A stretch of DNA of 64,000 bases from Escherichia coli (GTDB lineage: Bacteria > Pseudomonadota > Gammaproteobacteria > Enterobacterales > Enterobacteriaceae). Positions within the stretch are counted from its first letter, which is position 1. Each line of letters starts with the position of its first letter. The DNA lies in NCBI RefSeq assembly GCF_046105845.1, contig NZ_CP151004.1, one strand, 5' to 3'. The notes below the pieces were generated by a model that saw only the letters and a list, made by a program, of their open reading frames with translations, was not told the origin of the DNA and ran no database searches. The translations under genes and the position numbers were made by a program. Shown piece after piece: positions 1 to 59,094 of the stretch.

Positions 1-858
<858 letters not shown>

Positions 859-3440: not shown

Positions 3441-3474
3441 ACCCTCGCCGCCTGACGGTGAGGGTTTTCTTTTG
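3441..3474 (+). terminator. Candidate rho-independent terminator in the rna-rnk spacer
   Basis: Imperfect hairpin accctcgccg / cggtgagggt followed by tttcttttg, about 150 nt downstream of the rna stop. Confidence 0.5.
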
Positions 3475-3521
3475 GGTATGTTTATCTGCGACACTCGCAG
3501 TACCGACGACATGGAGTAAAA

Positions 3522-3932: not shown

Positions 3933-3965
3933 TCCCATCTGCACAAGCGATAACTCGCTTTGCCC

Positions 3966-3987
3966 AGAGGATGCACTCGCATCCTCT
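3966..3987 (+). terminator. Hairpin downstream of rnk (candidate terminator)
   Basis: Perfect 9-bp stem agaggatgc / gcatcctct with a 4-nt loop, about 35 nt after the rnk stop; the U-tract is weak. Confidence 0.45.
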
Positions 3988-4074
3988 TTCCGCTCAAATA
4001 TCAACCAGATTTATCATTTTGCTCTTAAGCGCAGCATTCTAATCTGAACTGGTTATTCATCTGCGGAACCTCAT

Positions 4075-4164
4075 ATGAGCGAAGCTCTCGGTATCACTGC
4101 ATTTTATATATTCATAGCCGCAATTATTGTTGCTGCAGTGCTATACCTTGAACAACGCTGGTAG
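4075..4164 (+). CDS. Candidate small hydrophobic protein (29 aa, MSEALGITAFYIFIAAIIVAAVLYLEQRW), hypothetical
   Basis: ATG-initiated 30-codon frame in the rnk-uspG spacer encoding one predicted transmembrane helix; weak GGAA upstream; contains rare ata and cta codons. Sequence-only prediction. Confidence 0.25.
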   Translation: MSEALGITAFYIFIAAIIVAAVLYLEQRW

Positions 4165-4287
4165 CGCCTGGTTTTATTTATTTTCCAGCTCAATAGCAAA
4201 TTCAGATCAAATCAGCCTCGCAAATCATAGATTCATAACCAATAATGTGCTGTTATGTATACATGCAAAAACAAGGAGAGAATGCTT

Positions 4288-4716
4288 ATGTACAAAACAA
4301 TCATCATGCCAGTTGATGTATTTGAAATGGAATTGAGCGACAAAGCGGTTCGCCACGCTGAATTCCTCGCCCAGGATGACGGAGTTATTCATCTACTTCA
4401 CGTACTACCGGGGTCAGCCAGCCTGAGCCTGCACCGTTTTGCCGCTGATGTACGTCGTTTTGAAGAGCATCTGCAACATGAAGCAGAAGAACGTTTGCAA
4501 ACGATGGTCAGCCACTTCACCATCGATCCTTCCCGCATTAAACAACATGTCCGTTTTGGTAGCGTGCGGGATGAAGTTAACGAGTTAGCGAAAGAACTTG
4601 ATGCAGATGTAGTAGTGATTGGTTCGCGTAACCCATCAATTTCAACTCATCTGTTGGGTTCTAACGCCTCGAGCGTGATCCGCCACGCCAATTTGCCGGT
4701 GCTGGTTGTGCGTTAA
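4288..4716 (+). CDS. uspG: Universal stress protein G
   Basis: ORF 4255..4716; start chosen at [11 protein letters not shown] to give 142 aa matching UspG as recalled. Confidence 0.9.
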
Positions 4717-4774
4717 TTGCCAGAATAAGTATCCCGCCCTGCCCGGAGCCATCCCGGCGGGGCTTTTTATTGCC

Positions 4775-4807
4775 ATAAAAAAGCCGCCAGGTTTGACCCC
4801 GGCGGCT
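4775..4807 (-). terminator. Rho-independent terminator downstream of ahpF
   Basis: Stem agccgcc / ggcggct with a 12-nt loop; on the minus strand it is followed by a U-tract (plus-strand ataaaaa). A second structured GC-rich hairpin plus T-run around 4732..4771 probably terminates uspG on the plus strand. Confidence 0.6.
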
Positions 4808-4836
4808 AAGCAATTGCAGGTGAATCTTACTTCTTC

Positions 4837-6402
4837 TTATGCTGTTTTGGTGCGAATCAGGTAGTCAAAAGCACTCAGAGAGGCTTTGGCACCTTCGCCA
4901 GTGGCGATGATGATCTGCTTGTACGGAACCGTTGTACAGTCACCCGCTGCGAACACGCCTTTCACGTTGGTTTCGCATTTCGCATCAATGATAATCTCGC
5001 CCATGCGGTTACGTTCGACTGCGCCTTCGAGCCAGTTGGTGTTCGGCAGCAGACCAATCTGCACGAAAATACCGGCCAGTTCGATGTTGTGAATATCGCC
5101 GCTGACACGATCTCGATATTCCAGACCAATGACTTTGCTGCCGTCGCCTTTCACTTCCGTAGTTTGCGCATTCAGAATAATGTCGACGTTTTTCAGGCTG
5201 CGCAGTTTGTCCTGCAGAACCTGGTCGGCTTTCATTTCTGGCGCAAATTCCAGCAGCGTTACGTGCTCAACGATACCCGCCAGGTCGATTGCCGCTTCCA
5301 CGCCGGAGTTACCGCCGCCGATAACCGCTACGCGTTTGCCTTTAAACAGCGGGCCGTCGCAGTGCGGGCAGTAGGTCACGCCTTTGGTGCGATACTGATC
5401 TTCGCCCGGAACGTTCATGTTGCGCCATTTTGCACCGGTCGCCACGATAATGCTGCGTGCTTTCAGTACCGCGCCAGAAGCTGTTTCAATCTGATGCAGA
5501 CCACCTTCAACCGCTGCCGGGATCAGTTTGCTGGCGCTCTGGCTGTCGATCACATCAACGTCGTATTCATCAACGTGAACTTTCAGCGCTCCTGCCAGCT
5601 TCTGCCCTTCAGTCTTCGGTACAGAAATGTAGTTTTCGATATCAACGGTATCGAGGATCTGACCACCAAAACGTTCGCCCATCAGACCAGTACGGATGCC
5701 TTTACGTGCGGAGTAAATTGCTGCCGCTGCACCCGCTGGGCCGGAACCGACGATTAATACGTCATAAGCATCACGCTTGTTCAGCTCTTCTGCCGCACGT
5801 TTTTCCGCGCCAGTATCAATTTTGGCGACGATTTCAGTCAACGTCATGCGACCCTGACCAAACTCTTTCCCGTTTACGAATACTGCCGGAACGCCCATCA
5901 CGTTGCGATCGGTGATTTCGTTCTGGAAGGTACCTCCGTCAATTGCAGTGTGCTTGATGCGCGGGTTCAGTACGCTCATCAGGTTCAGCGCCTGCACCAC
6001 ATCCGGGCAGTTGTGGCAAGAGAGCGAGTAATAGGTTTCGAATTCAAAATCACCGTCAATATGGCGAATCTGCTCCAGCAGAGACTGCGCTTCTTTCGAC
6101 GGATGACCACCGGTCCACAACAACGCCAGTACCAGCGAGGTAAACTCGTGGCCCAGCGGGGAACCTGCAAAACGTGGCCCCTGGTTAGAACCTGGGTTAG
6201 TGATCAGGAAAGACGGCTTACGCACCGGCAAGCTGTTATCTTCTTTAAAGGTGACTTTGTCTGACAGTTCTGCGATTTCAGCCAACAGTTCCTTGATTTC
6301 TGCCGATTTAGCGCTGTCATCCAGCGTGGCAATTAACTCAACAGGCTTGGTCAATTTCTCAAGGTAAGCCTTGAGTTGAGTTTTCATATTTGTGTCGAGC
6401 AT
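4837..6402 (-). CDS. ahpF: Alkyl hydroperoxide reductase subunit F
   Basis: ORF 4837..6432; start trimmed to MLDTNMKTQ to give 521 aa; two CxxC motifs are visible in the translation. Confidence 0.93.
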
Positions 6403-6572
6403 GTTTATCTCCTGGGCTTTAAACATCATCATGCAAGCGGCCTCTGCGGCTACCTGGATGCAGCTTGCATCATGGTGCGGGGAAGAAAATCGGGTGCCGC
6501 AGCACCCGAAGAATTAGGTGAATTTCCGAAGTATTTCGCGCCGGAGTTGGTAGCGCGAAAGACGAAGGAAAT

Positions 6573-7136
6573 TTAGATTTTACCAACCAGGTCCAGAGAC
6601 GGAGCCAGAGTTGCTTCACCTTCTTTCCATTTAGCCGGGCAAACTTCACCTGGGTGAGAAGCTACGTACTGTGCTGCTTTGATTTTACGCAGCAGGTCAG
6701 ACGCGTCACGGCCAATGCCTTCAGCGGTAACTTCGATTGCCTGGATGATACCCTGCGGGTCAACAACGAAGGTCGCACGGTCAGCCAGACCTTCATCTTC
6801 ACGCATGTTGTCGAAGTTACGGGTCAGGGCGCCAGTCGGGTCGCCGATCATCGCATATTTGATTTTAGCGATGGTTTCAGAGCTGCTGTGCCATGCTTTG
6901 TGGGTGAAATGAGTATCGGTAGATACTGCGTATACGTCTACGCCCAGTTTCTGCAGTTCTTCGTAGTGGTCAGCAACGTCACCCAGTTCGGTCGGGCATA
7001 CGAAAGTAAAGTCAGCCGGGTAGAAGAAGAAGACGCTCCAGCGGCCTTCGGTATCTTTTTCGGTGATTTCGATGAATTCGCCGTTTTTGAATGCCTGGTT
7101 TTTAAAAGGTTTAATTTTGGTGTTAATCAAGGACAT
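6573..7136 (-). CDS. ahpC: Alkyl hydroperoxide reductase subunit C (peroxiredoxin)
   Basis: 187 aa ORF recognised as AhpC; followed by ahpF. Confidence 0.95.
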
Positions 7137-7507
7137 CTATACTTCCTCCGTGTTTTCGATGAGATGTAAGGTAACCAATTTTTGCCGATTCGGCTAATGC
7201 GTTTCCATTATCAAATCGATAAGTTTTACCTTACAACCTTCGTAAGACAACTTTGTGAACTTTGCACCGCCAGCGGCGATAAAAAGTAAAATGGCCCCCT
7301 TTCCAGGTGACCGTGTAATCTGAACTACCCTTTGGTATCTTCAGCGCCTGCCTGCAGGCTGAGGTGTTGCCCTTACAAATGCAACAACGACATGGATTAC
7401 AACACCCTCATAAACAAAGGGCAATCACCTGATCTAAGCTCTTACCTATGACAGTGATAGGTTATGCCTTTTACTCGACTTTTGCACTGACTGAAAAGGA
7501 CAAATTA
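7137..7507. promoter_or_regulatory. Divergent ahpC / dsbG control region (OxyR-regulated promoters expected here)
   Basis: Intergenic region between the divergently oriented ahpC and dsbG; OxyR control of ahpCF and dsbG is established knowledge. The exact operator was not mapped from the sequence. Confidence 0.4.
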
Positions 7508-8254
7508 ATGTTAAAAAAGATACTTTTACTGGCTCTGCTTCCTGCAATCGCCTTCGCAGAGGAACTTCCTGATCCAGTAAAAGCGATTGAAAAACAGGGC
7601 ATTACAATCATCAAAACGTTCGATGCTCCCGGAGGAATGAAAGGTTATCTCGGCAAGTATCAGGATATGGGCGTCACCATCTACCTGACTCCAGATGGTA
7701 AGCACGCTATCTCTGGTTACATGTACAACGAGAAAGGTGAAAACCTGAGTAACACACTTATCGAAAAAGAAATTTACGCACCAGCCGGACGCGAAATGTG
7801 GCAACGGATGGAACAATCCCACTGGCTCCTCGACGGTAAAAAAGACGCGCCGGTCATTGTCTACGTCTTCGCCGATCCGTTCTGCCCATATTGTAAACAG
7901 TTCTGGCAGCAGGCTCGTCCGTGGGTAGATTCTGGCAAAGTGCAATTAAGAACATTGTTGGTTGGGGTTATCAAACCAGAAAGCCCGGCGACAGCAGCGG
8001 CAATTCTTGCCTCCAAAGATCCCGCAAAAACCTGGCAAGAATATGAAGCCTCTGGTGGCAAGCTTAAGCTAAACGTGCCTGCAAACGTAAGTACAGAGCA
8101 AATGAAAGTGTTAAGCGACAACGAGAAACTCATGGACGATCTGGGGGCAAATGTCACACCAGCTATCTATTACATGAGTAAGGAGAATACGCTGCAACAG
8201 GCCGTGGGGTTGCCCGATCAGAAAACGCTTAATATCATTATGGGGAATAAATAA
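7508..8254 (+). CDS. dsbG: Periplasmic disulfide isomerase/chaperone DsbG
   Basis: ORF 7448..8254; start chosen at the [17 protein letters not shown] signal peptide (248 aa); CPYC active-site motif is present. Confidence 0.9.
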
Positions 8255-8266
8255 AAGGTAATTCAT

Positions 8267-8302
8267 GGATGGTTGAACTATATCCCTGCTTTTCAACCAT
8301 CC
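8267..8302 (+). terminator. Strong hairpin downstream of dsbG (candidate terminator or boundary element)
   Basis: Perfect 11-bp inverted repeat ggatggttgaa / ttcaaccatcc with a 14-nt loop, 13 nt after the dsbG stop; no clear U-tract. Confidence 0.4.
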
Positions 8303-8463
8303 TAAAAAAGCATGAATTGCTCGCTCTGCCCTAAGTGGCTGTGCTATTTTAGTAAAACTTAATCCTGAGTTAAGCAAAAAAAAATAATCAATAAAAATAT
8401 ATACGCAAAAAAACATTGATTAAGTGAATATATCATGGAAGAAAAATATAACCGGAGTAGTGT

Positions 8464-9366
8464 ATGGCCAATCTCTACGACTTGAAAAAGTTCGACTTAA
8501 ATCTTCTTGTCATATTTGAGTGTATTTATCAGCATTTAAGCATTAGCAAGGCTGCTGAATCACTATATATCACCCCGTCAGCCGTGAGCCAGTCGTTACA
8601 ACGCTTACGTGCGCAATTTAATGACCCTTTATTCATTCGCTCAGGAAAAGGTATCGCGCCGACGACGACAGGGTTAAATCTGCATCACCATCTTGAGAAA
8701 AATCTCAGAGGCCTTGAACAAACAATTAATATAGTCAATAAGTCCGAACTAAAGAAAAACTTTATTATCTACGGTCCTCAGCTCATTTCTTGCTCTAATA
8801 ATAGTATGCTGATCCGCTGCCTACGGCAAGATGCCTCTGTCGAGATTGAGTGCCATGATATCCTCATGTCAGCAGAGAATGCTGAAGAACTGTTGGTTCA
8901 CCGCAAAGCCGATCTGGTGATCACCCAAATGCCAGTGATCAGCCGTTCCGTCATTTGCATGCCATTGCATACAATTCGCAATACTCTAATTTGTAGTATT
9001 AAGCATCCGCGAATTACTGACAATAGCACTTATGAACAAATTATGGCAGAAGAGTTCACCCAATTAATATCCAAATCAGCAGGAGTTGATGATATTCAAA
9101 TGGAAATAGACGAGAAGTTTATGAATCGCAAAATTTCATTTCGTGGTTCCTCTTTGCTGACAATCATTAATAGCATTGCAGTTACAGATTTACTGGGAAT
9201 AGTCCCCTATGAACTTTATAACTCCCACCGTGACTTTCTTAATTTAAAAGAGATAAAACTAGAACATCCGTTACCTTCAATAAAGCTTTACATTTCCTAT
9301 AATAAATCTTCTTTAAACAATCTGGTGTTCTCACGATTTATTGACCGTCTAAATGAGTGTTTTTGA
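8464..9366 (+). CDS. ybdO: LysR-family transcriptional regulator YbdO
   Basis: 300 aa ORF with N-terminal helix-turn-helix typical of LysR regulators; the gene is visibly AT-rich; synteny dsbG-ybdO-ybdN. Confidence 0.85.
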   Translation: MANLYDLKKFDLNLLVIFECIYQHLSISKAAESLYITPSAVSQSLQRLRAQFNDPLFIRSGKGIAPTTTGLNLHHHLEKNLRGLEQTINIVNKSELKKNFIIYGPQLISCSNNSMLIRCLRQDASVEIECHDILMSAENAEELLVHRKADLVITQMPVISRSVICMPLHTIRNTLICSIKHPRITDNSTYEQIMAEEFTQLISKSAGVDDIQMEIDEKFMNRKISFRGSSLLTIINSIAVTDLLGIVPYELYNSHRDFLNLKEIKLEHPLPSIKLYISYNKSSLNNLVFSRFIDRLNECF

Positions 9367-9512
9367 TATATAACTTCAGACAGCTACTATAACTTTCACC
9401 TATTTATTCACAGCGCGAATGAAAAATAAAACACTCTGCTTTTCAGTGTTTACTTTATAATTAACAGTCTTATCTCACTGATCACCCTGTAACGTTCAGA
9501 GAGCGTCTTCAG

Positions 9513-10733
9513 ATGTCTATTTATAAAATTCCTCTTCCGCTCAATATTCTGGAAGCTGCAAAAGAACGTATTACCTGGACACTTAACACCCTACCCCGCG
9601 TTTGTGTCTCATTTTCTGGCGGCAAAGACTCTGGTTTAATGCTGCATCTGACAGCCGAACTTGCTCGACAAATGGGCAAAAAAATCTGTGTTTTGTTTAT
9701 CGACTGGGAGGCGCAATTCTCTTGCACCATTAACTATGTTCAGTCCCTGCGCGAGTTGTACACCGATGTGATCGAAGAGTTTTACTGGGTTGCGCTCCCG
9801 CTTACGACGCAAAATTCCCTTTCACAATACCAACCCGAATGGCAGTGCTGGGAACCTGATGTCGAATGGGTACGTCAGCCCCCGCAAGATGCGATAACCG
9901 ATCCTGACTTTTTCTCCTTTTACCAGCCTGGCATGACCTTCGAACAATTTGTGCGTGAGTTTGCCGAATGGTTTTCGCAAAAACGCCCGGCGGCGATGAT
10001 GATCGGCATCCGTGCGGATGAGTCCTACAACCGTTTTGTCGCCATCGCCAGTTTAAATAAACAACGTTTTGCCGACGATAAACCCTGGACTACGGCCGCA
10101 CCAGGCGGGCATAGCTGGTACATTTACCCCATTTACGACTGGAAAGTGGCTGATATCTGGACCTGGTATGCAAATCATCAAAGTCTCTGCAACCCACTGT
10201 ATAACCTAATGTATCAGGCAGGCGTTCCTCTGCGTCATATGCGAATTTGCGAACCTTTTGGCCCGGAGCAACGACAAGGATTATGGCTCTATCACGTTAT
10301 CGAACCGGATCGCTGGGCTGCTATGTGCGCACGAGTCAGCGGGGTAAAAAGTGGCGGCATTTACGCCGGACATGACAATCATTTTTATGGTCATCGGAAA
10401 ATCCTCAAGCCCGAACATTTAGACTGGCAGGAGTATGCATTATTGCTACTCAACAGCATGCCGGAGAAAACAGCTGAGCATTATCGCAATAAAATCGCCA
10501 TTTATTTGCACTGGTATCAGAAAAAAGGCATCGAGGTTCCACAAACCCAGCAAGGGGACATTGGCGCGAAAGATATCCCCTCCTGGCGGCGAATATGCAA
10601 AGTTTTACTCAATAACGATTACTGGTGTCGGGCATTATCATTTAGCCCGACCAAAGCGAAGAACTATCAGCGTTATAACGAACGAATAAAAGGAAAACGT
10701 CAGGAATGGGGGATACTATGCAACAACGATTAA
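9513..10733 (+). CDS. ybdN: PAPS-reductase-like (adenine nucleotide alpha-hydrolase) protein YbdN, function unknown
   Basis: 406 aa ORF; SGGKDS P-loop motif near the N-terminus; recognised as YbdN (IbrA-like). Confidence 0.85.
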   Translation: MSIYKIPLPLNILEAAKERITWTLNTLPRVCVSFSGGKDSGLMLHLTAELARQMGKKICVLFIDWEAQFSCTINYVQSLRELYTDVIEEFYWVALPLTTQNSLSQYQPEWQCWEPDVEWVRQPPQDAITDPDFFSFYQPGMTFEQFVREFAEWFSQKRPAAMMIGIRADESYNRFVAIASLNKQRFADDKPWTTAAPGGHSWYIYPIYDWKVADIWTWYANHQSLCNPLYNLMYQAGVPLRHMRICEPFGPEQRQGLWLYHVIEPDRWAAMCARVSGVKSGGIYAGHDNHFYGHRKILKPEHLDWQEYALLLLNSMPEKTAEHYRNKIAIYLHWYQKKGIEVPQTQQGDIGAKDIPSWRRICKVLLNNDYWCRALSFSPTKAKNYQRYNERIKGKRQEWGILCNND

Positions 10734-11335
10734 CGCAGGATTTAACCCAATTTCTCGCCAGCTTGCCGGAAGACGATCGCATCAAAGCGATTAATGAAAT
10801 CCGCATGGCGATCCATCAGGTTAGCCCCTTTCGAGAAGAGCCAGTGGATTGCGTTCTGTGGGTTAAAAACAGCCAACTTATGCCTAATGATTACAACCCA
10901 AACAACGTGGCACCACCCGAAAAAAAACTGCTGAAAAAATCCATTGAAATAGATGGTTTTACCCAACCCATTGTGGTCACGCATACGGATAAAAATGCCC
11001 TGGAAATCGTGGATGGTTTTCACCGCCATGAAATTGGTAAAGGCTCATCATCGTTAAAATTACGCTTAAAAGGTTATTTGCCGGTGACCTGTCTGGAAGG
11101 TACGCGTAATCAACGCATCGCCGCGACTATTCGTCATAATCGCGCCCGTGGACGTCACCAAATCACTGCCATGTCAGAAATCGTCCGTGAACTCAGCCAG
11201 TTGGGATGGGACGATCATAAAATCGGCAAAGAGCTGGGAATGGACGGCGACGAAGTGCTGCGCCTGAAGCAAATTAACGGCCTGCAAGAACTGTTTGCCG
11301 ACCGTCAATTTTCCCGCGCCTGGACGGTTAAATAA
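10706..11335 (+). CDS. ybdM: ParB/sulfiredoxin-like domain protein YbdM, function unknown
   Basis: 209 aa ORF overlapping the ybdN 3-prime end by 28 nt (an alternative start at MQQR, 10718, is possible); recognised as YbdM (IbrB-like). Confidence 0.8.
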   Translation: MGDTMQQRLTQDLTQFLASLPEDDRIKAINEIRMAIHQVSPFREEPVDCVLWVKNSQLMPNDYNPNNVAPPEKKLLKKSIEIDGFTQPIVVTHTDKNALEIVDGFHRHEIGKGSSSLKLRLKGYLPVTCLEGTRNQRIAATIRHNRARGRHQITAMSEIVRELSQLGWDDHKIGKELGMDGDEVLRLKQINGLQELFADRQFSRAWTVK

Positions 11336-12496
11336 CTACAGCTGGCGCAGGCGTTCAGCTGCTGCCAGCAACGTCGATTCCTTCTTGGCAAAACAGAGAC
11401 GAATCAGTTTATGGGGGAAGGGATCGGCGCAAAACACCGACAGCGGAATCGCCGCTACACCGTGCTCCCGCGTCAGCCACTGGCAAAACTCAACGTCATC
11501 CAGGGTAGAAACCGCGCTGTAATCCACCAGCAAAAAGTATGTACCTTCACACGGTAAAATCTCCAGCCGGCTTTCATTTAAAGCATTCACCAGAATATCG
11601 CGTTTCTGGCGATAAAAGTCCGGTAACGCAAGATAATGCTCAGGTTCTGCACGTAGCATATCCGCAAGTGCCAGCTGTGCCGGGGTATTCACCGAAAAGG
11701 TCAGATACTGGTGTACCTTGCGAATTTCAGCGCTGATGGGCGCTGGCGCAACGCAATAACCCACTTTCCAGCCGGTCATATGATAGGTCTTGCCAAATGA
11801 AGAAACTGCCACCGCCCGCTCACGCAGCTGCGGATGCGCCAGCACGCTGGCATGGCCCTGTTGTGAAAAGTTGATGTGCTCGTAAACTTCATCGCTAATG
11901 ACAAAAATCTCGTGCCCGCCGATCGCCTGCCACAGAGCGGAGAAATCAGCCTGCTGCCAGACAGTTGCACTGGGGTTATGCGGGGTGTTGAGGATCACCA
12001 GTCGGGTGCGCTCGCTTAACAATGCGGCAAATTCCTGCCAGTCCACGCGAAAATGCGGTGGTTGCAGTGCAATACGTTTCACTATTCCCCCCGAAAGCGC
12101 GATGGCGGGCGCGTAACTGTCATAGCTGGGATCAAAGCAGATCACTTCATCACCATTGCGCACCAATGCGGTAATCGCTGCATATAACGCTTCCGTCGCC
12201 CCTGCCGTTACGGTGATATCGCTATCGGCATCCGGTTGATAGCCATACAGACGTTCCGTTTTCTGAGCAATCGCCTCGCGCAAGGCCTGCACGCCAGTCA
12301 TAGGCGCGTATTGGTTTGCCCCCTGGGCAACGTGGTACGCCAGCCGCTCTTGTAAATAGCGCGGACCATCAAAATCAGGAAAGCCTTGCGAAAGGTTAAT
12401 CGCCTGGTGTTGCTGCGCCAGCGCGCTCATCTGGGTGAAAATAGTGGTGCCAAGTTGTGGAAGTTTGCTTTGTGGAATCAGAGGGTTATTTGTCAT
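11336..12496 (-). CDS. ybdL: PLP-dependent methionine aminotransferase YbdL
   Basis: 386 aa class I aminotransferase ORF; synteny. Confidence 0.9.
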   Translation of the reverse strand: MTNNPLIPQSKLPQLGTTIFTQMSALAQQHQAINLSQGFPDFDGPRYLQERLAYHVAQGANQYAPMTGVQALREAIAQKTERLYGYQPDADSDITVTAGATEALYAAITALVRNGDEVICFDPSYDSYAPAIALSGGIVKRIALQPPHFRVDWQEFAALLSERTRLVILNTPHNPSATVWQQADFSALWQAIGGHEIFVISDEVYEHINFSQQGHASVLAHPQLRERAVAVSSFGKTYHMTGWKVGYCVAPAPISAEIRKVHQYLTFSVNTPAQLALADMLRAEPEHYLALPDFYRQKRDILVNALNESRLEILPCEGTYFLLVDYSAVSTLDDVEFCQWLTREHGVAAIPLSVFCADPFPHKLIRLCFAKKESTLLAAAERLRQL

Positions 12497-12604
12497 TTTT
12501 ATTGTACCTGACGAAGTTGCGTGTTGAAGGCACTATAACACGATGCTAGTATTTGGCAATCAAGACGTTTAGATGTCTAAATAAAACAATAAGGACAACA
12601 CAAC

Positions 12605-13693
12605 ATGCCTCACAATCCTATCCGCGTGGTCGTCGGCCCGGCTAACTACTTTTCACATCCAGGAAGTTTCAATCACCTGCACGATTTTTTCACTGATGAA
12701 CAGCTTTCTCACGCGGTGTGGATCTACGGCGAACGCGCCATTGCTGCGGCGCAAACAAAACTTCCGCCAGCGTTTGAACTGCCAAGGGCAAAGCATATTT
12801 TGTTTCGCGGCCATTGCAGCGAAAGCGATGTACAACAACTGGCGGCTGAGTCCGGTGACGATCGCAGCGTGGTGATTGGCGTCGGCGGCGGCGCACTGCT
12901 CGACACCGCGAAAGCCCTCGCCCGCCGTCTCGGTCTGCCGTTTGTTGCCGTTCCGACGATCGCCGCCACCTGCGCCGCCTGGACACCGCTCTCCGTCTGG
13001 TATAACGATGCCGGACAGGCGCTGCATTATGAGATTTTCGACGACGCCAATTTTATGGTGCTGGTGGAGCCAGAGATTATCCTCAACGCGCCGCACCAAT
13101 ATCTGCTGGCGGGGATCGGTGACACGCTGGCGAAATGGTATGAAGCGGTGGTGCTGGCTCCGCAACCAGAAACGTTGCCGCTAACCGTGCGGCTGGGGAT
13201 CAATAATGCGCAGGCCATTCGCGACGTCTTGTTAAACAGTAGCGAACAGGCGCTGAGCGATCAGCAAAAACAACAGTTAACGCAATCATTTTGCGATGTG
13301 GTGGATGCTATTATTGCTGGTGGTGGGATGGTCGGTGGTCTGGGCGATCGTTTTACGCGTGTGGCGGCGGCCCATGCCGTGCATAACGGTCTGACCGTTT
13401 TGCCGCAAACCGAGAAGTTTCTCCACGGCACCAAAGTCGCCTACGGAATTCTGGTGCAAAGCGCCTTGCTGGGTCAGGATGATGTGCTGGCGCAATTAAC
13501 AGAGGCGTATCAGCGTTTTCATCTGCCGACTACGCTGGCGGAGCTGGAAGTGGATATCAATAATCAGGTGGAGATCGACAAAATGATTGCCCACACCCTA
13601 CGTCCAGTGGAATCCATTCATTACCTGCCAGTCACGCTGACACCAGATACCTTGCGTGCAGCGTTCGAAAAAGTGGAATCGTTTAAAGCCTGA
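12605..13693 (+). CDS. ybdH: Iron-containing (glycerol dehydrogenase-like) hydroxycarboxylate dehydrogenase YbdH
   Basis: 362 aa ORF with the GVGGGALLD nucleotide-binding motif; synteny. Confidence 0.88.
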   Translation: MPHNPIRVVVGPANYFSHPGSFNHLHDFFTDEQLSHAVWIYGERAIAAAQTKLPPAFELPRAKHILFRGHCSESDVQQLAAESGDDRSVVIGVGGGALLDTAKALARRLGLPFVAVPTIAATCAAWTPLSVWYNDAGQALHYEIFDDANFMVLVEPEIILNAPHQYLLAGIGDTLAKWYEAVVLAPQPETLPLTVRLGINNAQAIRDVLLNSSEQALSDQQKQQLTQSFCDVVDAIIAGGGMVGGLGDRFTRVAAAHAVHNGLTVLPQTEKFLHGTKVAYGILVQSALLGQDDVLAQLTEAYQRFHLPTTLAELEVDINNQVEIDKMIAHTLRPVESIHYLPVTLTPDTLRAAFEKVESFKA

Positions 13694-13702
13694 CGTACAC
13701 AT

Positions 13703-13900
13703 TTAGCAGCAGCGCGCGCCGCCTTTTCCACCGTAGCGCGCGTCCTGCCGCTCACGGAAAAACTCCTCGTAGGTCATCGGCGTTTGATCGGGATGGTTAA
13801 CCCGCATATGTTCGACATAGTTGTCGTAATCAGGCATACCAATCATCAGCTTCGCCGCCTGACCTAAATATTTTCCGGCTTTTGCCAGTGAATCAAACAT
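13703..13900 (-). CDS. ybdD: Small protein YbdD (DUF466), partner of CstA
   Basis: 65 aa ORF immediately downstream of cstA on the same strand. Confidence 0.85.
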
Positions 13901-14052
13901 CAATACCTCCGGTAAACAGGTTGCTGATAGAGTGCATTAATAGCTATCAACGCGCTCGGTCAGTCCCCTCGCCCCACAGGAGAGAGGGTTAGGGTGAGGG
14001 GGAACCCTCGGCACCATGCCAACATTCGCCAACATCCCCCCTCACTCTGACT

Positions 14053-16158
14053 TTAGTGCGCGCCTTTCGCCTGCGCCACGATCTCTTCGACATTTTCCGG
14101 CATCGGCTCATACGGCGTTTCTTTCGCCGTTGGCTTCGGCTCTTTCAATGCCGCCAGTGCAGTCTTAATCGAGAACAGCGCCAGAACCACCACGACCACC
14201 ATAAAGAAGATGGTTAACCCGGCATCCAGACGGTTGTTGAACACCAGTTGCGCCAGTTGTGACTCAGTATACTGCGACGGAATATTGCCGCTGTCGATCA
14301 TTGCCTGGAACTTGTTAGCAATCGCCAGGAAGCCGACCTTCGCATCCGGGCTAAACGCTTTCTGCCAGCCAGCGGTCAGAGTACAAATCAGCAGCCAGGC
14401 CGTTGGTACCAGCGCCACCCAGGCGTAACGTTGACGTTTCATTTTGAACAGCACCACAGCACAGAGCATCAGCGCCATCCCTGCCAGCATCTGGTTGGCA
14501 ATACCAAACAGCGGCCACAAGGTGTTAATACCGCCCAGCGGATCGACCACGCCCTGATGCAGGAAGTAGCCCCACGCCAGCACGCACAGCGCCGTTGCCA
14601 GCAGGTTAGCAGGCAGTGAATCGGTCCTTTTCAGGCCCGGAGACACCACGCCCAGCAGATCCTGCAACATAAAGCGCGCAGCACGCGTACCTGCATCCAC
14701 CGCCGTCAGAATAAACAGTGCTTCAAACAGAATGGCGAAGTGATACCAGAACGCCACATCCATCATGCCGCCCAGCGCACCGTGCAGAATGTAGGCCATC
14801 CCCACCGCCAGGGTCGGCGCACCGCCCGCACGGGAAATGATCGACTGTTCACCCACTTCGCTGGCAATCTGGTTGAGCGTATCTGGTGTAATGCTAAATC
14901 CCCAGCTACTCACCACTTGCGCTGCAGAAGCGACCACATCCGCCGTCCCTGCCGGAGCCAGCACCGCCATCGGGCTGTTCATAGCGAAGTACACACCCGG
15001 ATCGATGATACAGGCGGAAACCAGCGCCATAATCGCTACGAAGGATTCCATTAACATCCCGCCGTAGCCGATAAAACACGCCTGCCCTTCGTTCGCCAGC
15101 ATCTTCGGCGTGGTACCGGAAGAGATCAGCGCATGGAAGCCAGACACCGCGCCACAAGCGATGGTGATAAACAGGAACGGGAACAGGTTACCGGTCCATA
15201 CCGGGCCAGTGCCATCAACAAATTTGGTCAGCGCAGGCATGGTCAGCGTCGGGCGCATGATCAGAATGCCTACCGCCAGACCGACGATAGTCCCGATTTT
15301 CAAGAAGGTTGAGAGGTAGTCACGCGGGGCCAGCAGCAACCACACCGGCAGCACCGCCGCCACGAAGCCGTAACCCACCAGCATCCAGGTCAGCTGCACG
15401 CCGGTAAAGTCAAAGTACGGTGCCCAGGTCGGACTTTCTGCCACCCAGCCGCCAGAGATAATGGCGAAAATCAGGAACACCAGGCCAATCACCGACACTT
15501 CGCCAATACGCCCCGGACGCAGATAACGCAGGTAGATCCCCATAAACAGCGCCAGCGGAATGGTGAACGCAACGGTATACGTTCCCCACGGGCTATGAGT
15601 CAGGGCTTTCACCACGATCATCGCCAGTACTGCAAGGATAATGACCATGATCATAAAGCAGGCCACCAGCGCTATCACCCCGGCGGTTGGCCCCATCTCT
15701 TCTTTGACCAACTCACCCAGCGAGCGACCATCGCGGCGCGTAGAAACAAACAGCACCATGAAATCCTGCACCGCACCGGCGAGAACCACCCCGGCGAGCA
15801 GCCAGATCATCCCCGGCAGGTAGCCCATTTGCGCTGCCAGCACCGGCCCAACCAGCGGACCTGCTCCGGCAATGGCCGCAAAATGGTGACCGAACAGCAC
15901 TTTCTTGTCCGTCGGCACATAGTCCAGCCCGTCGTTATGGCGCACCGCTGGCGTCATACGCGTCGGGTCAACCGCCAGCACATTTTTGGCGATATACAGA
16001 CCATAAAAACGGTAAGCGATCAGATAGATACAGACCGACGCCACCACAATCCACAGCGCGTTGATCTGTTCCCCACGATTTAAAGCAATATATCCCAGAG
16101 CAAATGCTCCCATTACAGAGAGCACTGTCCAGACGAGGTATTTCCCTGATTTGTTCAT
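14053..16158 (-). CDS. cstA: Carbon starvation protein A (peptide/pyruvate transporter)
   Basis: 701 aa polytopic membrane protein ORF recognised as CstA. Confidence 0.93.
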   Translation of the reverse strand: MNKSGKYLVWTVLSVMGAFALGYIALNRGEQINALWIVVASVCIYLIAYRFYGLYIAKNVLAVDPTRMTPAVRHNDGLDYVPTDKKVLFGHHFAAIAGAGPLVGPVLAAQMGYLPGMIWLLAGVVLAGAVQDFMVLFVSTRRDGRSLGELVKEEMGPTAGVIALVACFMIMVIILAVLAMIVVKALTHSPWGTYTVAFTIPLALFMGIYLRYLRPGRIGEVSVIGLVFLIFAIISGGWVAESPTWAPYFDFTGVQLTWMLVGYGFVAAVLPVWLLLAPRDYLSTFLKIGTIVGLAVGILIMRPTLTMPALTKFVDGTGPVWTGNLFPFLFITIACGAVSGFHALISSGTTPKMLANEGQACFIGYGGMLMESFVAIMALVSACIIDPGVYFAMNSPMAVLAPAGTADVVASAAQVVSSWGFSITPDTLNQIASEVGEQSIISRAGGAPTLAVGMAYILHGALGGMMDVAFWYHFAILFEALFILTAVDAGTRAARFMLQDLLGVVSPGLKRTDSLPANLLATALCVLAWGYFLHQGVVDPLGGINTLWPLFGIANQMLAGMALMLCAVVLFKMKRQRYAWVALVPTAWLLICTLTAGWQKAFSPDAKVGFLAIANKFQAMIDSGNIPSQYTESQLAQLVFNNRLDAGLTIFFMVVVVVLALFSIKTALAALKEPKPTAKETPYEPMPENVEEIVAQAKGAH

Positions 16159-16338
16159 AGTTGTTATCCGTGTGCGTGTCCATAGAGATGTTACATTTTG
16201 TTTCTATAACATCTTTGTACAATTTAACAACACGGCAACCATGTAAATCGGAGTTGAAACCAATATTTAACTTAACAATGTTAACTCGATCACTCCGTTA
16301 ACCGAGTTTTCCTGCAATCTCATTTAATTCTGTCGGGC

Positions 16339-17500
<1,162 letters not shown>

Positions 17501-17501
<1 letters not shown>

Positions 17502-18361
17502 TATTTCACCTCGCGGGAGAGTAGCTTCCACCAGGCGTCGATGGTCGGGTTTTTCGCCAGCATGACAAAGTCGATATCGCCATGCACTTTGCGCCAGCGC
17601 GCCGCCAGCGCCATCATGCGCACCGAATCCAGACCGTAGTCGATCAGGTTGTCATCATCGAACGGTTCATCGGACTCGTCCAGCAACGGCAGGATCACCT
17701 CACGCAGCGCCGCTTTGCTGGCGGGGATAGGTGCTGCTGGCAGCAATTCTTCGGTCATCACCACCCGGCCAGAACGTCCGGCCACATATTTCAGCGACAT
17801 CAAATGCTCGTCACGGCTGAAATCGGCCAGCGCATCTGCCACCATAAACGGTTTAATATCGCGCATAAATGCGTCCGTTGCGGTGGTCATACAGCCAATG
17901 TGGGCATATACCCCGGTAATAATCAGCTGGTTACGTCCACTCTCTTTGAGCATTTGCTCCAGCGGGGAACGATGAAACGCGCTGTAGCGCCACTTCACCA
18001 GCACCGTGTCGTCGGCATCTGGCGTCAGGCGATCCACCACCTTTTGCTGTTCCGGCGAACGGGTCAGGCCTGGCCCCCACATATCATTCAACAGCGCCCG
18101 ATCTTCATCGCTCTGCTCTTTCGGCTGGGCGGTGTAATAAACCGGGATATTGTGCTGTTTGCAGTAGTCGCGTAGTGCCGCAATATTCGCGATCACCTGC
18201 TCCATCATCGGGCAGTTCTCGCCCCAGAAGCTGACAAAATAGTCCTGCATATCATGGATTAACAACGCGGCATGTTGCGGTTCAAAGGCCCAGTCGACTT
18301 TATTCTGCGGAATATCGTGAGACTCCGGCAGTGCGTAAGCCTGTAATTTTGGAATAGCCAT
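17501..18361 (-). CDS. entB: Isochorismatase / aryl carrier protein EntB
   Basis: 285 aa ORF; synteny entC-entE-entB-entA. Confidence 0.95.
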
Positions 18362-18374
18362 CGTGTTCTCTCCT

Positions 18375-19985
18375 TCAGGCTGATGCGCGTGACGCCAGCC
18401 ACTGACGTAATTGTTTTTTATCGACTTTCCCGACCGCCGTCAGCGGAAGTGAATCCACACACTCCACGCGATCCGGTAATTTAAATTCGGCAATACCCTG
18501 TTCACGCAGGAAACGACGCACCTGCACCGCGCGCAGCGGCTCTTTTACCACCAGATAAGCACAGCTTTTTTCGCCCATCAGCTCATCTTCCATGCTCACC
18601 AGTGCGGCGTAGATCACCGCCGGATGGCGCAGTAACAGGTTTTCGATCTCTTCGGCAGCGATCTTCTCGCCGCCACGGTTAATCTGATCTTTCTCGCGCC
18701 CCTGCACGGTGATGTAACCCTCTGGATCAATAGAGATCAGATCGCCAGAACAGTAAAAACCGTTGGCATCAAAGGCGCTGGCATTGTGCTGCGGGCTTTT
18801 GTAATAGCCGCGGAAGGTGTACGGACCGCGCGTCATCAGGCGTCCGACTTCCCCTTGCGGCAGTGGATTTCCTTCGGCATCGGCAACCCACACTTCATCG
18901 TCCGGACACATTGGATAGCCCTGGGTATGGATTATTTTCTCCGCGCTATCATCAAGTCGGGTGTAGTTCACCAGTCCTTCCGCCATGCCGAATACCTGCT
19001 GTAACTGGCAGCCAATCTCTGCGGGAATACGCGCCGCAAGCGTGGCAGAAAGACGTGCACCACCGACCTGTAACAGTTTCAGCGAGGCAAGCTGCGCCCG
19101 GCTTTCTCCTTCGGTCAGCGCCTGTAACCACAGGCTGACTGCGGGTGGCACCAGCGCGGTGACGTTCACCTGATGTTTTTCAATCAATGGGAAGCAGAGC
19201 GTGGCGCTGGGGTCGGCAGCCAGAACGACAGTGCCGCCAGCGAGAAATACTCCCAGCGATCCTGGCGAACTCATGGCGTAGTTATGAGCCGCCGGGATCG
19301 CGCACAGGTAGCGTGTCTGTTGTGTGAACTGACAAATCTCGACGCTACGACGCACGCTGTAGTAGTAGTCGTTATGAGTGCGCGGGATCAGTTTCGGTGT
19401 GCCGGTGGTGCCGCCGGAAAGCTGGAAATAGGCCACTTCATCAGCAGGTGACGGCGTGGCAGTAAAATCCTCAGCCGGATGGTTAATCGCATCCTGCAAA
19501 TTATGCTCACCGCTGTCGTTGTGCAGTTGCACCACGCGAATGGAGGAATGCTCTGCAACAAATGTATTGAGGAAATCATCCCCGCTAAACAGCGCATGCT
19601 GGCGATCGGCAATCAGTAACGCCGGTTCAATCTGGCTGGCATAGGCGTTCAGTTCACTACGCTGATGGCTGAACAGCGCCAGCACCGGCGCAACGCCCAG
19701 TTTCAGCAGCGCGAAAAAAGTAATGTAAAGTTCAGCGACGTTACCCAGTTGTACCAGCGCAGTTTCACCAGGTTTAATGCCCTGAAGGCGCAAACTACAC
19801 GCGAGGTTATCCGCCGCCTGATTCAGCTCCCGATAACTCAACTGCCGTTCGCCGTCGATGACCGCGATGCTGTCGCTTGCGGCATGACGGGTCAGAATGT
19901 CGGTCAGCGGCAAATCCTGCCAGTAGCCTTTTTCCCGATAGCGACGGGCAAACTCTTCCGGCCAGCGGGTGAATGGAATGCTCAT
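18375..19985 (-). CDS. entE: 2,3-dihydroxybenzoate-AMP ligase EntE
   Basis: ORF 18375..19991 trimmed to MSIPFTRW (536 aa); adenylation-domain motifs present. Confidence 0.95.
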
Positions 19986-19994
19986 CCTCACTCC

Positions 19995-21170
19995 TTAATG
20001 CAATCCAAAAACGTTCAACATGGTAGAAAGTTTGACGCCCGTTTCGCGCCACTCACCCAACGGTGACGACGCAGGCACAATCCCCGCTCCGGCAAACAGA
20101 CGCACCTGATTTTCCCGCAGCTTCGCGCAGCGGATGGTCACCACCCATTCACCGTTACCTTCGCTGTCACACCAACCCACAATGCCGCCAAACAGTTCGC
20201 GGTCGAACGGCTCCAGTTCAGCAATAACCTGAGTCGCGGCCTGATGCGGGAAACCGCTCAGCGCGGGGGTCGGATGCAGCAGACAGGCCAGAGTCAGTGC
20301 GTTTTCTTGCGAATTCGCTTTACCTTCAAAGGGAGTTGCGAGATGCCACAGCGTCGGCGTGGTGATCAGTTGTGGAGAAGAAGGAACGTGTAACTCACTA
20401 CTGCGTTCGCGCAATACCTCTTTCATCGCCTGAGTCACCAGTTCATGTTCATGGCGATCTTTTTCTGACGCCAACAGACGATTACCCGCTTCGCGATCGA
20501 GCACTTCATCCGGCTGACGACGCGCGGAACCGGCTAACGGAATGGAGCTAAAACGCTCGCCGTCTTTACGTAGCAGCAGTTCCGGGCTGGCCCCCAGCAG
20601 AACGCCACCATCAGCCAGCGGGACATGGAAGTTGTAACTAACCGGGTTTTGCGCAATCAACCGTTCCAGCAATACGCCACTATCAATGGCGGCGTCAGTG
20701 GTGATATCAATCAACCGTGACAACACCACTTTGTCGACCTGCGGCGTGGCGGTAAGTGCGGCGGCGCGAGCAACCATCTGTTCAAACGTGGCTTGTTCCG
20801 GAATTGCCTGGCGTTCCACCACGTTCAGCGACTGGCTGCGGGTAAAACGGCGGGCTGAAGATTGTTTTTCCTGGCGGGAGAACGACTGCCAGGATTCAGG
20901 AATATACAGCGATGAAGGCTGACGTGGATCGAAGGGAATCGCCCCGACCATCACCGGATTTTTGATGCCCTGCGCTTTGGCATCGGCAAACAGCGCGGCG
21001 AGTTTTTGCTGGAAGGGACTGTCGGGTGAATCCCCGTTCACAGCGGGTTCATCGAAGCGGGCGAAACATCCTGACGTCGTAAAACTGCGGTACGGCGACA
21101 TAAAGAAAAAGCGATTGGGCGCAAGTGTTGCCATGGTCTGCTGTACTTCCTCAGCCAGTGACGTATCCAT
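19995..21170 (-). CDS. entC: Isochorismate synthase EntC
   Basis: ORF 19995..21182 trimmed to MDTSLAEEV (391 aa). Confidence 0.93.
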
Positions 21171-35615: not shown

Positions 35616-35652
35616 TGCTAACGTCAGATTGTTGACAAAGTGCGCGTCGTTC

Positions 35653-35754
35653 ATGCCGGATGCGGCGTGAACGCCTTATCAGGCCTACAAAAATCTTGTC
35701 AATTCAATATATTGCAGGACCACGTAGGCCTGATAAGCGTAGCGCATCAGGCAG
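35653..35754. repeat. Pair of inverted REP (repetitive extragenic palindrome, BIME-like) elements
   Basis: atgccggatgcggcgtgaacgccttatcaggcctac and the inverted gtaggcctgataagcgtagcgcatcaggca match the enterobacterial REP consensus. Confidence 0.85.
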
Positions 35755-35789: not shown

Positions 35790-36410
35790 ATGAAAACTAC
35801 GCATACCTCCCTCCCCTTTGCAGGACATACGCTGCATTTTGTTGAGTTTGATCCGGCGAGTTTTCGCGAGCAGGATTTACTCTGGCTGCCACACTACGCA
35901 CAACTGCAACACGCTGGACGTAAACGTAAAACAGAGCATTTAGCTGGACGGATCGCTGCTGTTTATGCCTTGCGGGAATATGGCTATAAATATGTGCCCG
36001 CTATCGGCGAGCTACGCCAACCTGTGTGGCCTGCGGAGGTATACGGCAGTATTAGCCACTGCGGGACTACGGCATTAGCCGTGGTATCTCGTCAACCGAT
36101 TGGCATTGATATCGAAGAGATTTTCTCTGTACAAATCGCAAGAGAATTGACAGACAACATTATTACACCAGCAGAACACGAGCGACTCGCAGAATGCGGT
36201 TTAACCTTTTCTCTGGCGCTGACACTGGCATTTTCCGCCAAAGAGAGCGCATTTAAGGCAAGCAAGATACAGGCCGCTCAAGGTTTTCTGGATTATCAGA
36301 TAATTAGCTGGAATAAACAGCGGATCATCATTCGACTAGAGGATGAGCAGTTTGCTGTGCACTGGCATATAAAAGAAAAGATAGTCATAACGCTGTGCCA
36401 ACACGATTAA
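35790..36410 (+). CDS. entD: Phosphopantetheinyl transferase EntD
   Basis: ORF 35640..36410 trimmed to MKTTHTSLPFAGHTL (206 aa); the longer ORF would read through the REP elements. Confidence 0.92.
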   Translation: MKTTHTSLPFAGHTLHFVEFDPASFREQDLLWLPHYAQLQHAGRKRKTEHLAGRIAAVYALREYGYKYVPAIGELRQPVWPAEVYGSISHCGTTALAVVSRQPIGIDIEEIFSVQIARELTDNIITPAEHERLAECGLTFSLALTLAFSAKESAFKASKIQAAQGFLDYQIISWNKQRIIIRLEDEQFAVHWHIKEKIVITLCQHD

Positions 36411-36531
36411 TTGACAACTTCTGGTACGATTCGCCCGCAGCCATTGCTGACCGCGGGCGAAAGTGTAAAGCAGGTGCCTTACCATCCTGACCTGACAACC
36501 GGATATGCGGGGATTGCTCCCAACACAACGG

Positions 36532-36684
36532 CTACTTCTTCGGTTCGTAAGCGAGAACAGCCTTAAACTCAATATTACGTTCCTTCACCGTAAACTCACA
36601 CAGCGAGTCTCCGACCAGAAGCGTAAATCCCAGCACCGTTAAACACAGCACTATGACTGCCACAAGGGCATATTTCGTCAGCAT
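36532..36684 (-). CDS. hokE: Type I toxin Hok-family protein HokE, copy 1 (50 aa)
   Basis: [50 protein letters not shown]; Hok-family hallmarks (single TM, LCE and AYEP motifs); recognised as HokE. Confidence 0.9.
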
Positions 36685-36784
36685 GTTTATATTGCCTCCA
36701 TGCGAAGAAGGGACTACCATCCAAATTGTTCAGGTTTGGGTAGGTAGCCCCAGGGTTGATAGAAATATCGTCCTGGGGCTTCAT
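36596..36784 (-). CDS. mok-like overlapping reading frame (modulator of killing), copy 1
   Basis: 62-codon frame starting upstream of and overlapping hok in another frame, as in hok/mok/sok loci; GGAAAG Shine-Dalgarno upstream. Confidence 0.6.
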
Positions 36785-36790
36785 CTTTCC
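36727..36790 (+). ncRNA. sokE: Candidate Sok-type antisense RNA, copy 1 (boundaries approximate)
   Basis: Plus-strand promoter-like TTGCCT-17 nt-TACCAT at 36692..36720, then a single-stranded stretch and a hairpin ccccagg / cctgggg (36749..36779) with a U-rich tail, antisense to the mok start region. Predicted from sequence architecture only. Confidence 0.35.
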
Positions 36791-37035
36791 AGACCTCAGA
36801 GTTAACCTGAAACCGGAAAGCTTCAGGCACCCGCCGTTATCTTACCCTTCCTCAGCAAAATAGCTGTTTATTTATACAGTGAATCCTGTTTCGGACTTCT
36901 GTTGGCAAAACTGATCATTGCCCTTAAAACGACATCGCCCGCAGCCATTGCTGACCGCGGGCGAAAGTGTAAAACAGGTGCCTTACCACCCTGACCTGAC
37001 AACCGGATATGCGGGGATTACTCCCCGCACAACGG

Positions 37036-37188
37036 CTACTTCTTCGGTTCGTAAGCGAGAACAGCCTTAAACTCAATATTACGTTCCTTCACCGTAAACT
37101 CACACAGCGAGTCTCCGACCAGAAGCGTAAATCCCAGCACCGTCAAACACAGCACTATGACTGCCGCAAGGGCATATTTCGTCAGCAT
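37036..37188 (-). CDS. hokE: Type I toxin Hok-family protein HokE, copy 2 (50 aa, one V-to-A difference from copy 1)
   Basis: [50 protein letters not shown]; intact frame. Confidence 0.88.
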
Positions 37189-37288
37189 GTTTATATTGCC
37201 TCCATGCGAAGAAGGGACTACCATCCAAATTGTTTGGGTTTGGAGTGGCAGCCCCAGGGTTGATAGAAATATCGTCCTGGGGCTTCAT
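37100..37288 (-). CDS. mok-like overlapping reading frame, copy 2
   Basis: 62-codon frame overlapping hok copy 2; differs from copy 1 in its N-terminal part (GAATPNPNN versus GATYPNLNN). Confidence 0.55.
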
Positions 37289-37294
37289 CTTTCC
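37231..37294 (+). ncRNA. sokE: Candidate Sok-type antisense RNA, copy 2 (boundaries approximate)
   Basis: Same promoter-like element and hairpin as copy 1; the predicted 5-prime tail carries 5 substitutions relative to copy 1. Confidence 0.3.
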
Positions 37295-37622
37295 AGACCT
37301 CAGAGTTAACCTGAAACCGGAAAGCTTCAGGCACCCGCCGTTATCTTACCCTTCTTCAGCAAAATGGCTGTTTATTTATACAGTGAGTCCTGTTTCGGAC
37401 TTCTCAATCCTCATTTGATCAACTGAAGCTGAACCCGTTTTTTTTCTGCATGCCTCAATCGTCAAAATTCTTCGCCACCAGTCCGCACTGCCATAACTTG
37501 TCATATTGCAAAATGTAGCCAATTTGCTTCAGTCACCATCATCAAAAAAAGAAACATTCCAGAACTTCCGCATCTCGCCCAGTCGCTCCCACTTCTATAC
37601 TGAATAGAAAACGCCAACATAA

Positions 37623-38750
<1,128 letters not shown>

Positions 38751-58765: not shown

Positions 58766-58842
58766 GAAGAAAAAATGGCGCGCCCTGCAGGATTCGAACC
58801 TGCGGCCCACGACTTAGAAGGTCGTTGCTCTATCCAACTGAG
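58766..58842 (-). tRNA. argU: tRNA-Arg (anticodon UCU)
   Basis: Reverse complement reads GCGCCCTTAGCTCAGTTGGATAGAGCAACGACCTTCTAAGTCGTGGGCCGCAGGTTCGAATCCTGCAGGGCGCGCCA, a canonical cloverleaf with encoded CCA and anticodon TCT. Confidence 0.95.
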
Positions 58843-59094
58843 CTAAGGGCGCGTTGATACCGCAATGCGGTGTAATCGCGTGAATTATACGGTCAACCCT
58901 TGCTGAGTCAATGGCTTTTGATCTGGTTGCTGAACAAGTGAACGACCGCGTCTGATTTTCTGATTTATTTCGCTATAGCGGCAAACAAACGCACACCGCT
59001 GCGCGTCTGAATCAAGAAAACCCGTATTTTCATGTATCAAAGTACAATTTCCCGACCTAACGGAAAATTGTCCGATCCAATGAGACTGGTAACT

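Follow-up and report, generated by a model that had tools for sequence, protein, structure and literature searches.

The two hokE genes found between entD and ybdK in the window, which is the whole stretch of 64,000 nucleotides of Escherichia coli DNA analysed here, are a common, annotated and previously described polymorphism. We regard it as highly probable, at roughly 90%, that they represent the chromosomal hokE/sokE locus in an ordinary two-copy state, that is, one allele of a type I toxin-antitoxin tandem array which varies in copy number and is ancestral in Escherichia. How the locus works is a separate matter: transcription of both copies, a switch of the RNA fold, toxicity of the proteins and any physiological role are inferred from homology.

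The array is composed of two direct repeats of 470 nt on the minus strand, namely the entD-proximal unit 1 at 36431-36900 and the ybdK-proximal unit 2 at 36935-37404. According to the repeat finder and direct alignment they lie head-to-tail with 504 nt from start to start, separated by a 34-nt spacer at 36901-36934 that is assigned to neither strand. The array is flanked by entD, which ends at 36410, and ybdK at 37632-38750. Every gene of a unit is on the minus strand, and Sok alone is on the plus strand. In the alignment the units are 96.6% identical with 16 substitutions and no indels, and their homology ends abruptly on both sides. An earlier account of this DNA made without database searches (the sequence-only reading) had described two diverged head-to-tail hokE/mok/sok modules between entD and ybdK with about 15 differences and no indels; its coordinates, period and spacer are all as claimed, and the count of 16 agrees with its estimate. 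As for the origin of the spacer, 11 of its 34 nucleotides match by eye the ybdK-side flank (37405-37438), with TGATCA in register, and 9 of 34 match the entD-side flank. Tandem Repeats Finder reported no repeat on the array, because the period of 504 exceeds the longest period of 500 that the tool admits, and this result is not evidence against the repeat.

Each unit contains a hok gene of 50 codons and a stop in the open reading frame list, copy 1 at 36532-36684 and copy 2 at 37036-37188, both on the minus strand. The first encodes the protein called HokE WP_000956465.1 in RefSeq genomes and the second is identical to K-12 HokE YP_025295.1; relative to copy 1, Hok of copy 2 has the single residue change V8A, and the genes have one further synonymous change. 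The protein belongs to the Pfam family HOK_GEF (PF01848, E = 2.5e-8), with residues 5-46 aligned to model positions 1-42 of 42. Two NCBIfam models give significant but sub-threshold matches, the HokA equivalog with 49.2 bits against a cut-off of 89 (E = 4e-13) and the Hok subfamily with 40 bits against a cut-off of 73 (E = 3e-10). No HokE-specific NCBIfam model matched the window Hok, and RefSeq nonetheless gives identical proteins the name HokE. Each unit also has, out of frame with hok, a mok-like open reading frame of 62 codons on the minus strand that ends inside hok (36596-36784 in copy 1 and 37100-37288 in copy 2). Mapped onto the mRNA, this frame runs in both copies from nt 49 to nt 237 and passes through the hok AUG at nt 149, and so the intact hok and the overlapping mok frame that had been proposed for each unit are present in both. 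All 40 aligned units retain the mok AUG, and the frame behind it takes three configurations in related units, one of which stops before hok; the variants of this frame include one of 22 codons and an in-frame one of 83 codons.

The antisense side of the module can be recognized in both copies as well. The two hok mRNA leaders, on the minus strand at 36676-36832 and 37180-37336, score 84.1 and 80.3 bits against the Rfam sok model RF01794, above its gathering score of 59; both matches cover the full model (positions 1-157 for copy 1), and the leader, whose 5' end is placed by homology, comprises the mok start and the Sok target hairpin. Sok itself was mapped from K-12 sokE (b4835) to the plus strand at 36728-36788 and 37232-37292, 61 nt in each case, the second on a 57-nt alignment to K-12 sokE with 98% identity and one gap. 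It consists of an 18-nt 5' tail followed by a terminator hairpin, and covers the mok start. In each copy the hairpin reads GCCCCAGG...CCTGGGGC and is followed by TTCATCTTT, and the predicted fold of both copies has an unpaired 5' tail, then the GC-rich hairpin and a U-rich end. A hairpin at the position expected for Sok had been pointed out before, and both the mapped K-12 sokE and the Rfam sok match to both leaders bear it out.

The promoter-like element that had been noted along with it fared less well: candidate sites can be read in the sequence, but they match the consensus poorly and none was called by the scan. The presumed Sok promoter, TTGCCT-17-TACCAT on the plus strand at 36692-36720, stops 7 nt short of the mapped 5' end of Sok and recurs as an identical element at 37196-37224 in copy 2; it agrees with the consensus at 8 of 12 positions, which is a weak match. 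Since the consensus promoter scan gave no sigma-70 site in 36380-37660 at a threshold of 9/12, the Sok promoter is placed from the mapped sokE 5' end only. For the hok mRNA, a candidate -10-like TAAGAT on the minus strand at 36839-36844, with no good -35, would lie 6 nt upstream of the presumptive 5' end, and the same putative element is at 37343-37348 in copy 2.

When the 408-nt mRNA of either copy is folded for minimum free energy, nt 1-8 (GGGUGCCU, tac-like) pair with nt 354-361 (AGGCACCU). The latter is a predicted fbi-like 3' element, AGGCACCU, on the minus strand at 36472-36479 in copy 1 and 36976-36983 in copy 2. The RNAalifold consensus of 40 units, unlike the single-sequence folds, is closed between nt 5-10 and nt 339-344. 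Covariation speaks for neither form of 5'-3' closure, because all of those columns are invariant, and with only 3 pairs showing double changes among the 40 units there is too little variation for a test of the whole fold. The Sok-target hairpin has two compensatory pair changes, from AU to GC, in 8/40 and 5/40 units. At the 3' ends, the terminator hairpin of copy 1 (TCGCCCGCGGTCAGCAATGGCTGCGGGCGA, minus strand, 36431-36460) is followed by AUCGUACC without a U-run and was not passed by the scan. The hairpin of copy 2 (minus strand, 36935-36964) is followed by the spacer, which supplies the U-run UGUCGUUUUA, and with this tail it is the only terminator-like site that the scan returned.

These parts recall the hok/sok (parB) system of plasmid R1, with which the window units share a Hok/Gef-family toxin, an overlapping mok, a cis-antisense Sok over the mok start and an Rfam leader model built on the family; the 5'-3' closure in the single-sequence folds of the window mRNAs would correspond to that of tac with fbi in R1. 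The differences are that Hok has 52 residues in R1 and 50 in the window, that mok has 70 and 62 codons respectively, and that the window locus is chromosomal and tandem. If the units worked as summarized for R1 (PMC9841398), the minus-strand mRNA, stable and about 400 nt long, would be made in a closed form in which its two ends pair and translation is prevented. Slow trimming from the 3' end would open it, and translation of mok through the hok ribosome-binding site would then permit synthesis of Hok, which would be a 50-residue inner-membrane toxin. Sok, expected to be a short and unstable plus-strand RNA, would pair with the mok start region and thereby block translation of mok and hence of hok, and the duplex of Sok with the mRNA would be marked for RNase III.

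In K-12 MG1655 this intergenic region is occupied by one hokE (b4415), sokE (b4835, annotated as 60 nt) and IS186B, and the sequence-only reading was right to name a single hokE with IS186 alongside. The K-12 unit aligns to the window units at 95-97% at the same ybdK/entD locus and is collinear with window unit 2 from the ybdK side, while the 34-nt spacer is missing in K-12. There IS186B lies inside the 3' UTR hairpin GCGGGGAGTAATCCCCGC, with a 10-bp duplication GGAGTAATCC, and separates hok from the fbi-like element and the terminator, whereas the units of the window are uninterrupted.

To see how common the arrangement is, we searched 5,426 complete RefSeq E. coli genomes with a junction query of 74 bp, composed of the spacer and 20 nt on each side, at a required coverage of at least 80%, which a single-copy genome cannot satisfy. 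The copy-copy junction is present in 2,398 of the 5,426 genomes (44%), O157:H7 and O145 included. Junctions counted with this query number 2,470 in 2,400 genomes, and since they outnumber the genomes, a few dozen genomes must have three or more copies. A longer junction query of 154 bp was discarded, as the search joins both of its halves in single-copy genomes. With a 1,401-bp query many matches are annotated "hokE (x2)", O157:H7 among them. Two annotated hokE genes are found in O157:H7 Z570, O145 RM12275, O158:H23 CFIAFB20140388, 7/2, 204446, 118UI, AGR4587 and EcPF18, and the finished genome of strain KKo009 has three as annotated by PGAP. Other E. coli genomes have a single intact copy, or have lost copies to ISEcp1 or IS150, so that hokE copy number ranges from 1 to 3 in the genomes examined.

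The tandem hokE pairs of RefSeq genomes (O157:H7, O145, O158:H23 and strain 042) have the same position, 470-bp units, a homologous spacer and two intact hokE genes, and only allelic detail differs. By the type of the Sok 5' tail (see below), the window has A on the entD side and B on the ybdK side with spacer variant 1, and O157:H7 has D and C with spacer variant 2. O158:H23 CFIAFB20140388 has the same A+B pair and spacer as the window, at 98.6% identity over 1,401 bp. Such loci have also been described in the literature. A recent preprint reports that 10% of Hok genes are in "islets" of 2-6 homologues that arose via local duplication, and that islets account for 13.5% of chromosomal hok genes in Escherichia (10.1101/2025.08.07.668861). 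The window pair is an islet by its definition (at least two hok genes of the same cluster within 2 kb), with starts 504 bp apart and proteins 98% identical. Earlier, type I loci were noted to be prone to tandem duplication, with 14 Hok genes in O157:H7 Sakai (Fozo et al. 2010, PMC2887945).

It follows that the claim of the sequence-only reading that a double chromosomal hokE locus would be unusual does not survive the comparison. A rare, lineage-specific duplication giving an unusual double dose of functional hok could appeal to the single, IS186-disrupted copy of K-12 and to the fact that the lineage of the window is without close representation among complete genomes; against the junction in 44% of complete E. 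coli, the same A+B pair in O158:H23 and the spacer in other Escherichia species, we consider it extremely improbable. It had been said that the arrangement would be unremarkable if most E. coli, K-12 included, carried it: it is indeed common in E. coli, but K-12 itself is single-copy.

Regarding the age of the duplication, a homologous 34-nt spacer, in three sequence variants, occurs in every tandem array sampled, and a unit of the same kind as unit 1 is present at all the Escherichia loci sampled. Scanning a representative genome of each GTDB species for exact patterns, we found two units about 502 nt apart with a homologous spacer in E. whittamii, in Escherichia sp. MOD1-EC7003 and in a lineage labelled "E. 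coli" that has only about 93% identity to the window; E. albertii and Escherichia sp. E1V33 each gave a single unit. As the tandem arrangement and its spacer are present in divergent Escherichia lineages, the duplication is older than the diversification of the genus or has spread across it. When 28 units are placed in a neighbour-joining tree, those from the entD side and those from the ybdK side do not form separate groups, and the units are mosaic. A fixed ancestral order of the copies was dropped on this ground, since where a unit sits in its array does not tell its lineage. Both copies of E. whittamii, and likewise both copies of the 93% lineage, share Hok substitutions specific to their lineage, and these together with the mixed tree indicate that units have been shuffled by recombination or gene conversion.

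The earlier suggestion of an older duplication with both copies intact, as opposed to an artefact, is thus upheld by the 16 differences and by the conservation of the spacer in thousands of finished genomes. The same two observations tell heavily against an assembly artefact, in which one unit was wrongly expanded to two. Short reads can lead to mis-assembly of repeats of about 500 bp, and some metagenome arrays with identical tails are suspicious in this respect; for the window, with its 16 differences and its unique spacer, we give such an error almost no weight.

The differences between the two copies are not evenly distributed. Six of the 16 (36731, 36732, 36740-36742 and 36745) are in the first 18 nt of Sok, at its positions 4, 5, 13-15 and 18, so that 6 of 18 positions differ in the tail as against 10 of the remaining 452 (Fisher p = 8e-6), and the 20-nt bin of the tail is the most variable across the 28 units. 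The tail differences lie in 36731-36745 of copy 1 and 37235-37249 of copy 2, and the 3' UTRs also differ, in 36516-36523 and 37020-37027 respectively. The 5' tail of Sok and its target form the region where antisense recognition starts. Discrete tail types can be told apart, namely A (TACCTACCCAAACCTGAA), B (TGCCACTCCAAACCCAAA), C, which is one nucleotide shorter, and D, whose hairpin has a compensatory CTCGG. RNAduplex energies over the 24-nt tail region are -49 and -51 kcal/mol for the cognate pairs and -32 kcal/mol for the cross pairs. Each Sok probably represses its own mRNA better than that of its neighbour, because the tails differ at 6 of 18 positions. As for covariation of the tail target with its 3' partner (GGAUGG, GGGUGG or GAGUGG), only type D pairs consistently, with GAGUGG, and types A and B/C are mixed.

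Within an array the tails are non-identical in 14 of 14 arrays read from complete E. coli genomes and in all 3 draft genomes from other Escherichia lineages, a small sample whose genomes are not phylogenetically independent. Identical tails were seen in 5 of 10 metagenome contigs, which derive from short reads (C+C in L023 and L029, B'+B' in L025, D+D in L026 and A+A in L030). For the three of these metagenome arrays that were searched, no identical-tail counterpart was found in complete genomes, and the nearest finished genomes have B+C, a single-copy D and A+B'. Given the lack of a finished counterpart, the identical-tail metagenome arrays may be the result of short-read repeat mis-threading.

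Other duplicated type I systems have a similar pattern. In zorO-orzO/zorP-orzP, ibs-sib and ldr-rdl, as in the hokE pair, the module is duplicated in one intergenic region with the differences concentrated in the antisense recognition region, although their toxin families are unrelated to Hok. The Orz sRNAs are encoded divergently from their toxins and have only 18-19 nt of complementarity to the mRNA, while Sok is a fully overlapping cis-antisense RNA. For Zor/Orz, a 3-nt variable region at the 5' end of the sRNA determines which mRNA is repressed (PMC3919570). By analogy one may speculate that the array is a set of recombining cassettes in which the Sok tail and its target serve as a specificity code, so that Sok 1 (A) and Sok 2 (B) each would control their own hok only; we offer this as a tentative idea that is on present evidence rather improbable. 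Alternatively, the tail could just be where a cis-antisense pair is under the least constraint.

An ordinary two-copy allele need not be an active one, and the two copies may be intact but physiologically silent relics, in an array kept by drift and recombination. We think this somewhat unlikely, yet it deserves serious weight. According to earlier work as it is cited in the islet preprint (10.1101/2025.08.07.668861), the chromosomal hokA, hokB and hokC show no post-segregational killing and no rifampicin activation, and therefore an intact hokE sequence does not prove activity. The promoters of the window units are weak by consensus, the locus is often struck by insertion sequences (IS186 in K-12, ISEcp1 and IS150), many genomes are single-copy, and the mok frame is variable in related units. 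On the other hand, hok is intact at 50 codons with few substitutions in 35 of 35 full-length units, from about 40 units of five Escherichia lineages, the sole broken hok being on a 1.2-kb metagenome contig. Neither the mok AUG nor the 5' and 3' pairing elements vary, and compensatory changes are seen in the target hairpin. This pattern of conservation fits purifying selection on the hokE unit. K-12 HokE is reported to be toxic on overexpression (10.1101/2025.08.07.668861), and hokE mRNA is detectably edited in K-12, therefore it is transcribed there.

With the pair in the window taken as an ordinary allele of an ancestral and copy-number-variable array, K-12 with its single, IS186-disrupted copy represents the less typical state and makes a poor standard for chromosomal type I toxin-antitoxin loci. 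Should the Sok tail be a specificity code after all, the two copies would mean two independently triggered toxins per cell, not a double dose of one. If the copies are insulated from each other in this way, additional copies would mean more independent toxin switches and not a higher dose, which would bear on stress-induced dormancy or abortive infection.

The source of the window appears, from sequence identity, to be an E. coli lineage that has no representative among finished genomes. Among 5,426 complete RefSeq E. coli genomes, the best matches to window positions 1-20000 and 26000-48000 reach 98.3% and 98.4% identity, and none of these genomes exceeds about 98.4% over either segment. Against Escherichia sp. 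E1V33, Escherichia sp. MOD1-EC7003 and E. whittamii, the identity of the window is 92-96%.

Regarding its organization in relatives, the hokE locus is a structural hot spot. The variants recorded here come from the related loci L005 (strain KKo009), L006 and L007, L011 and L016: an array of three copies in KKo009, two SDR-family oxidoreductase genes directly adjoining hokE in place of entD, replacement of the ybdK-side copy by ISEcp1, and an IS150 case in which only 150 nt of a unit is left. In K-12, IS186B (positions 4008-5352 of L001, the K-12 locus) interrupts the hairpin GCGGGGAGTAATCCCCGC of the 3' UTR, and its insertion is accompanied by a duplication of 10 bp, GGAGTAATCC. The G4-N6-C4 site used by this element is intact in copy 2 of the window (37011-37028), and the corresponding site of copy 1 (36507-36524) reads TTGGGAGCAATCCCCGC, which gives a weaker stem. 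In a metagenome contig (L030), one member of a tandem pair likewise carries an insertion, at the unit position that IS186B occupies in K-12.

Three plus-strand ORFs of the window (36505-36642, 37009-37263 and 37230-37418) run antisense to hok and mok. In many genomes PGAP labels their equivalent, lying across Sok, as a "hypothetical protein", frequently with a frameshift or internal-stop flag; the ORFs are most likely spurious calls over an antisense RNA region. Directly upstream of entD, within 35644-35731, there are a REP-like hairpin matching naRNA4 at 31 bits, below the gathering threshold, and a match to ES036/CssrF at 36.9 bits versus 37.6, both of which are ordinary repetitive extragenic elements. 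The further Rfam matches above gathering, namely the rnk leader (3368-3476), STnc70 (7281-7374) and one tRNA (58779-58852), have no relation to the hokE pair.

Within the coding part of the pair, codon 46 of Hok is TAC followed by G in both copies, at 36547-36549 and 37051-37053 on the minus strand, and the two copies do not differ at this site or in its surroundings. This is the context for A to I editing by TadA, which recodes Tyr46 to Cys and is reported to affect 40% of the hokE mRNA in K-12 (PMC12214031).

As to mok, the ORF beginning at the conserved mok AUG takes three configurations among 40 hokE units (columns 49-300 of their alignment, A2; example loci L002:852-1252, L002:1355-1754 and L014). 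It is in frame with hok in 16 of the 40, where 83 codons yield an N-terminally extended Hok; the K-12-like unit, the entD-side copy of O157 and E. albertii belong to this class. Thirteen units, both window copies among them, have a 62-codon ORF in a frame other than that of hok, with its stop codon within the hok gene. The remaining 11/40, of Sok tail type C, carry a short ORF of 22 or 17 codons which stops about 30 nt upstream of the hok AUG. Since in plasmid R1 mok must be translated as far as the hok Shine-Dalgarno sequence (PMC9841398), units of this short-mok class may not make Hok.
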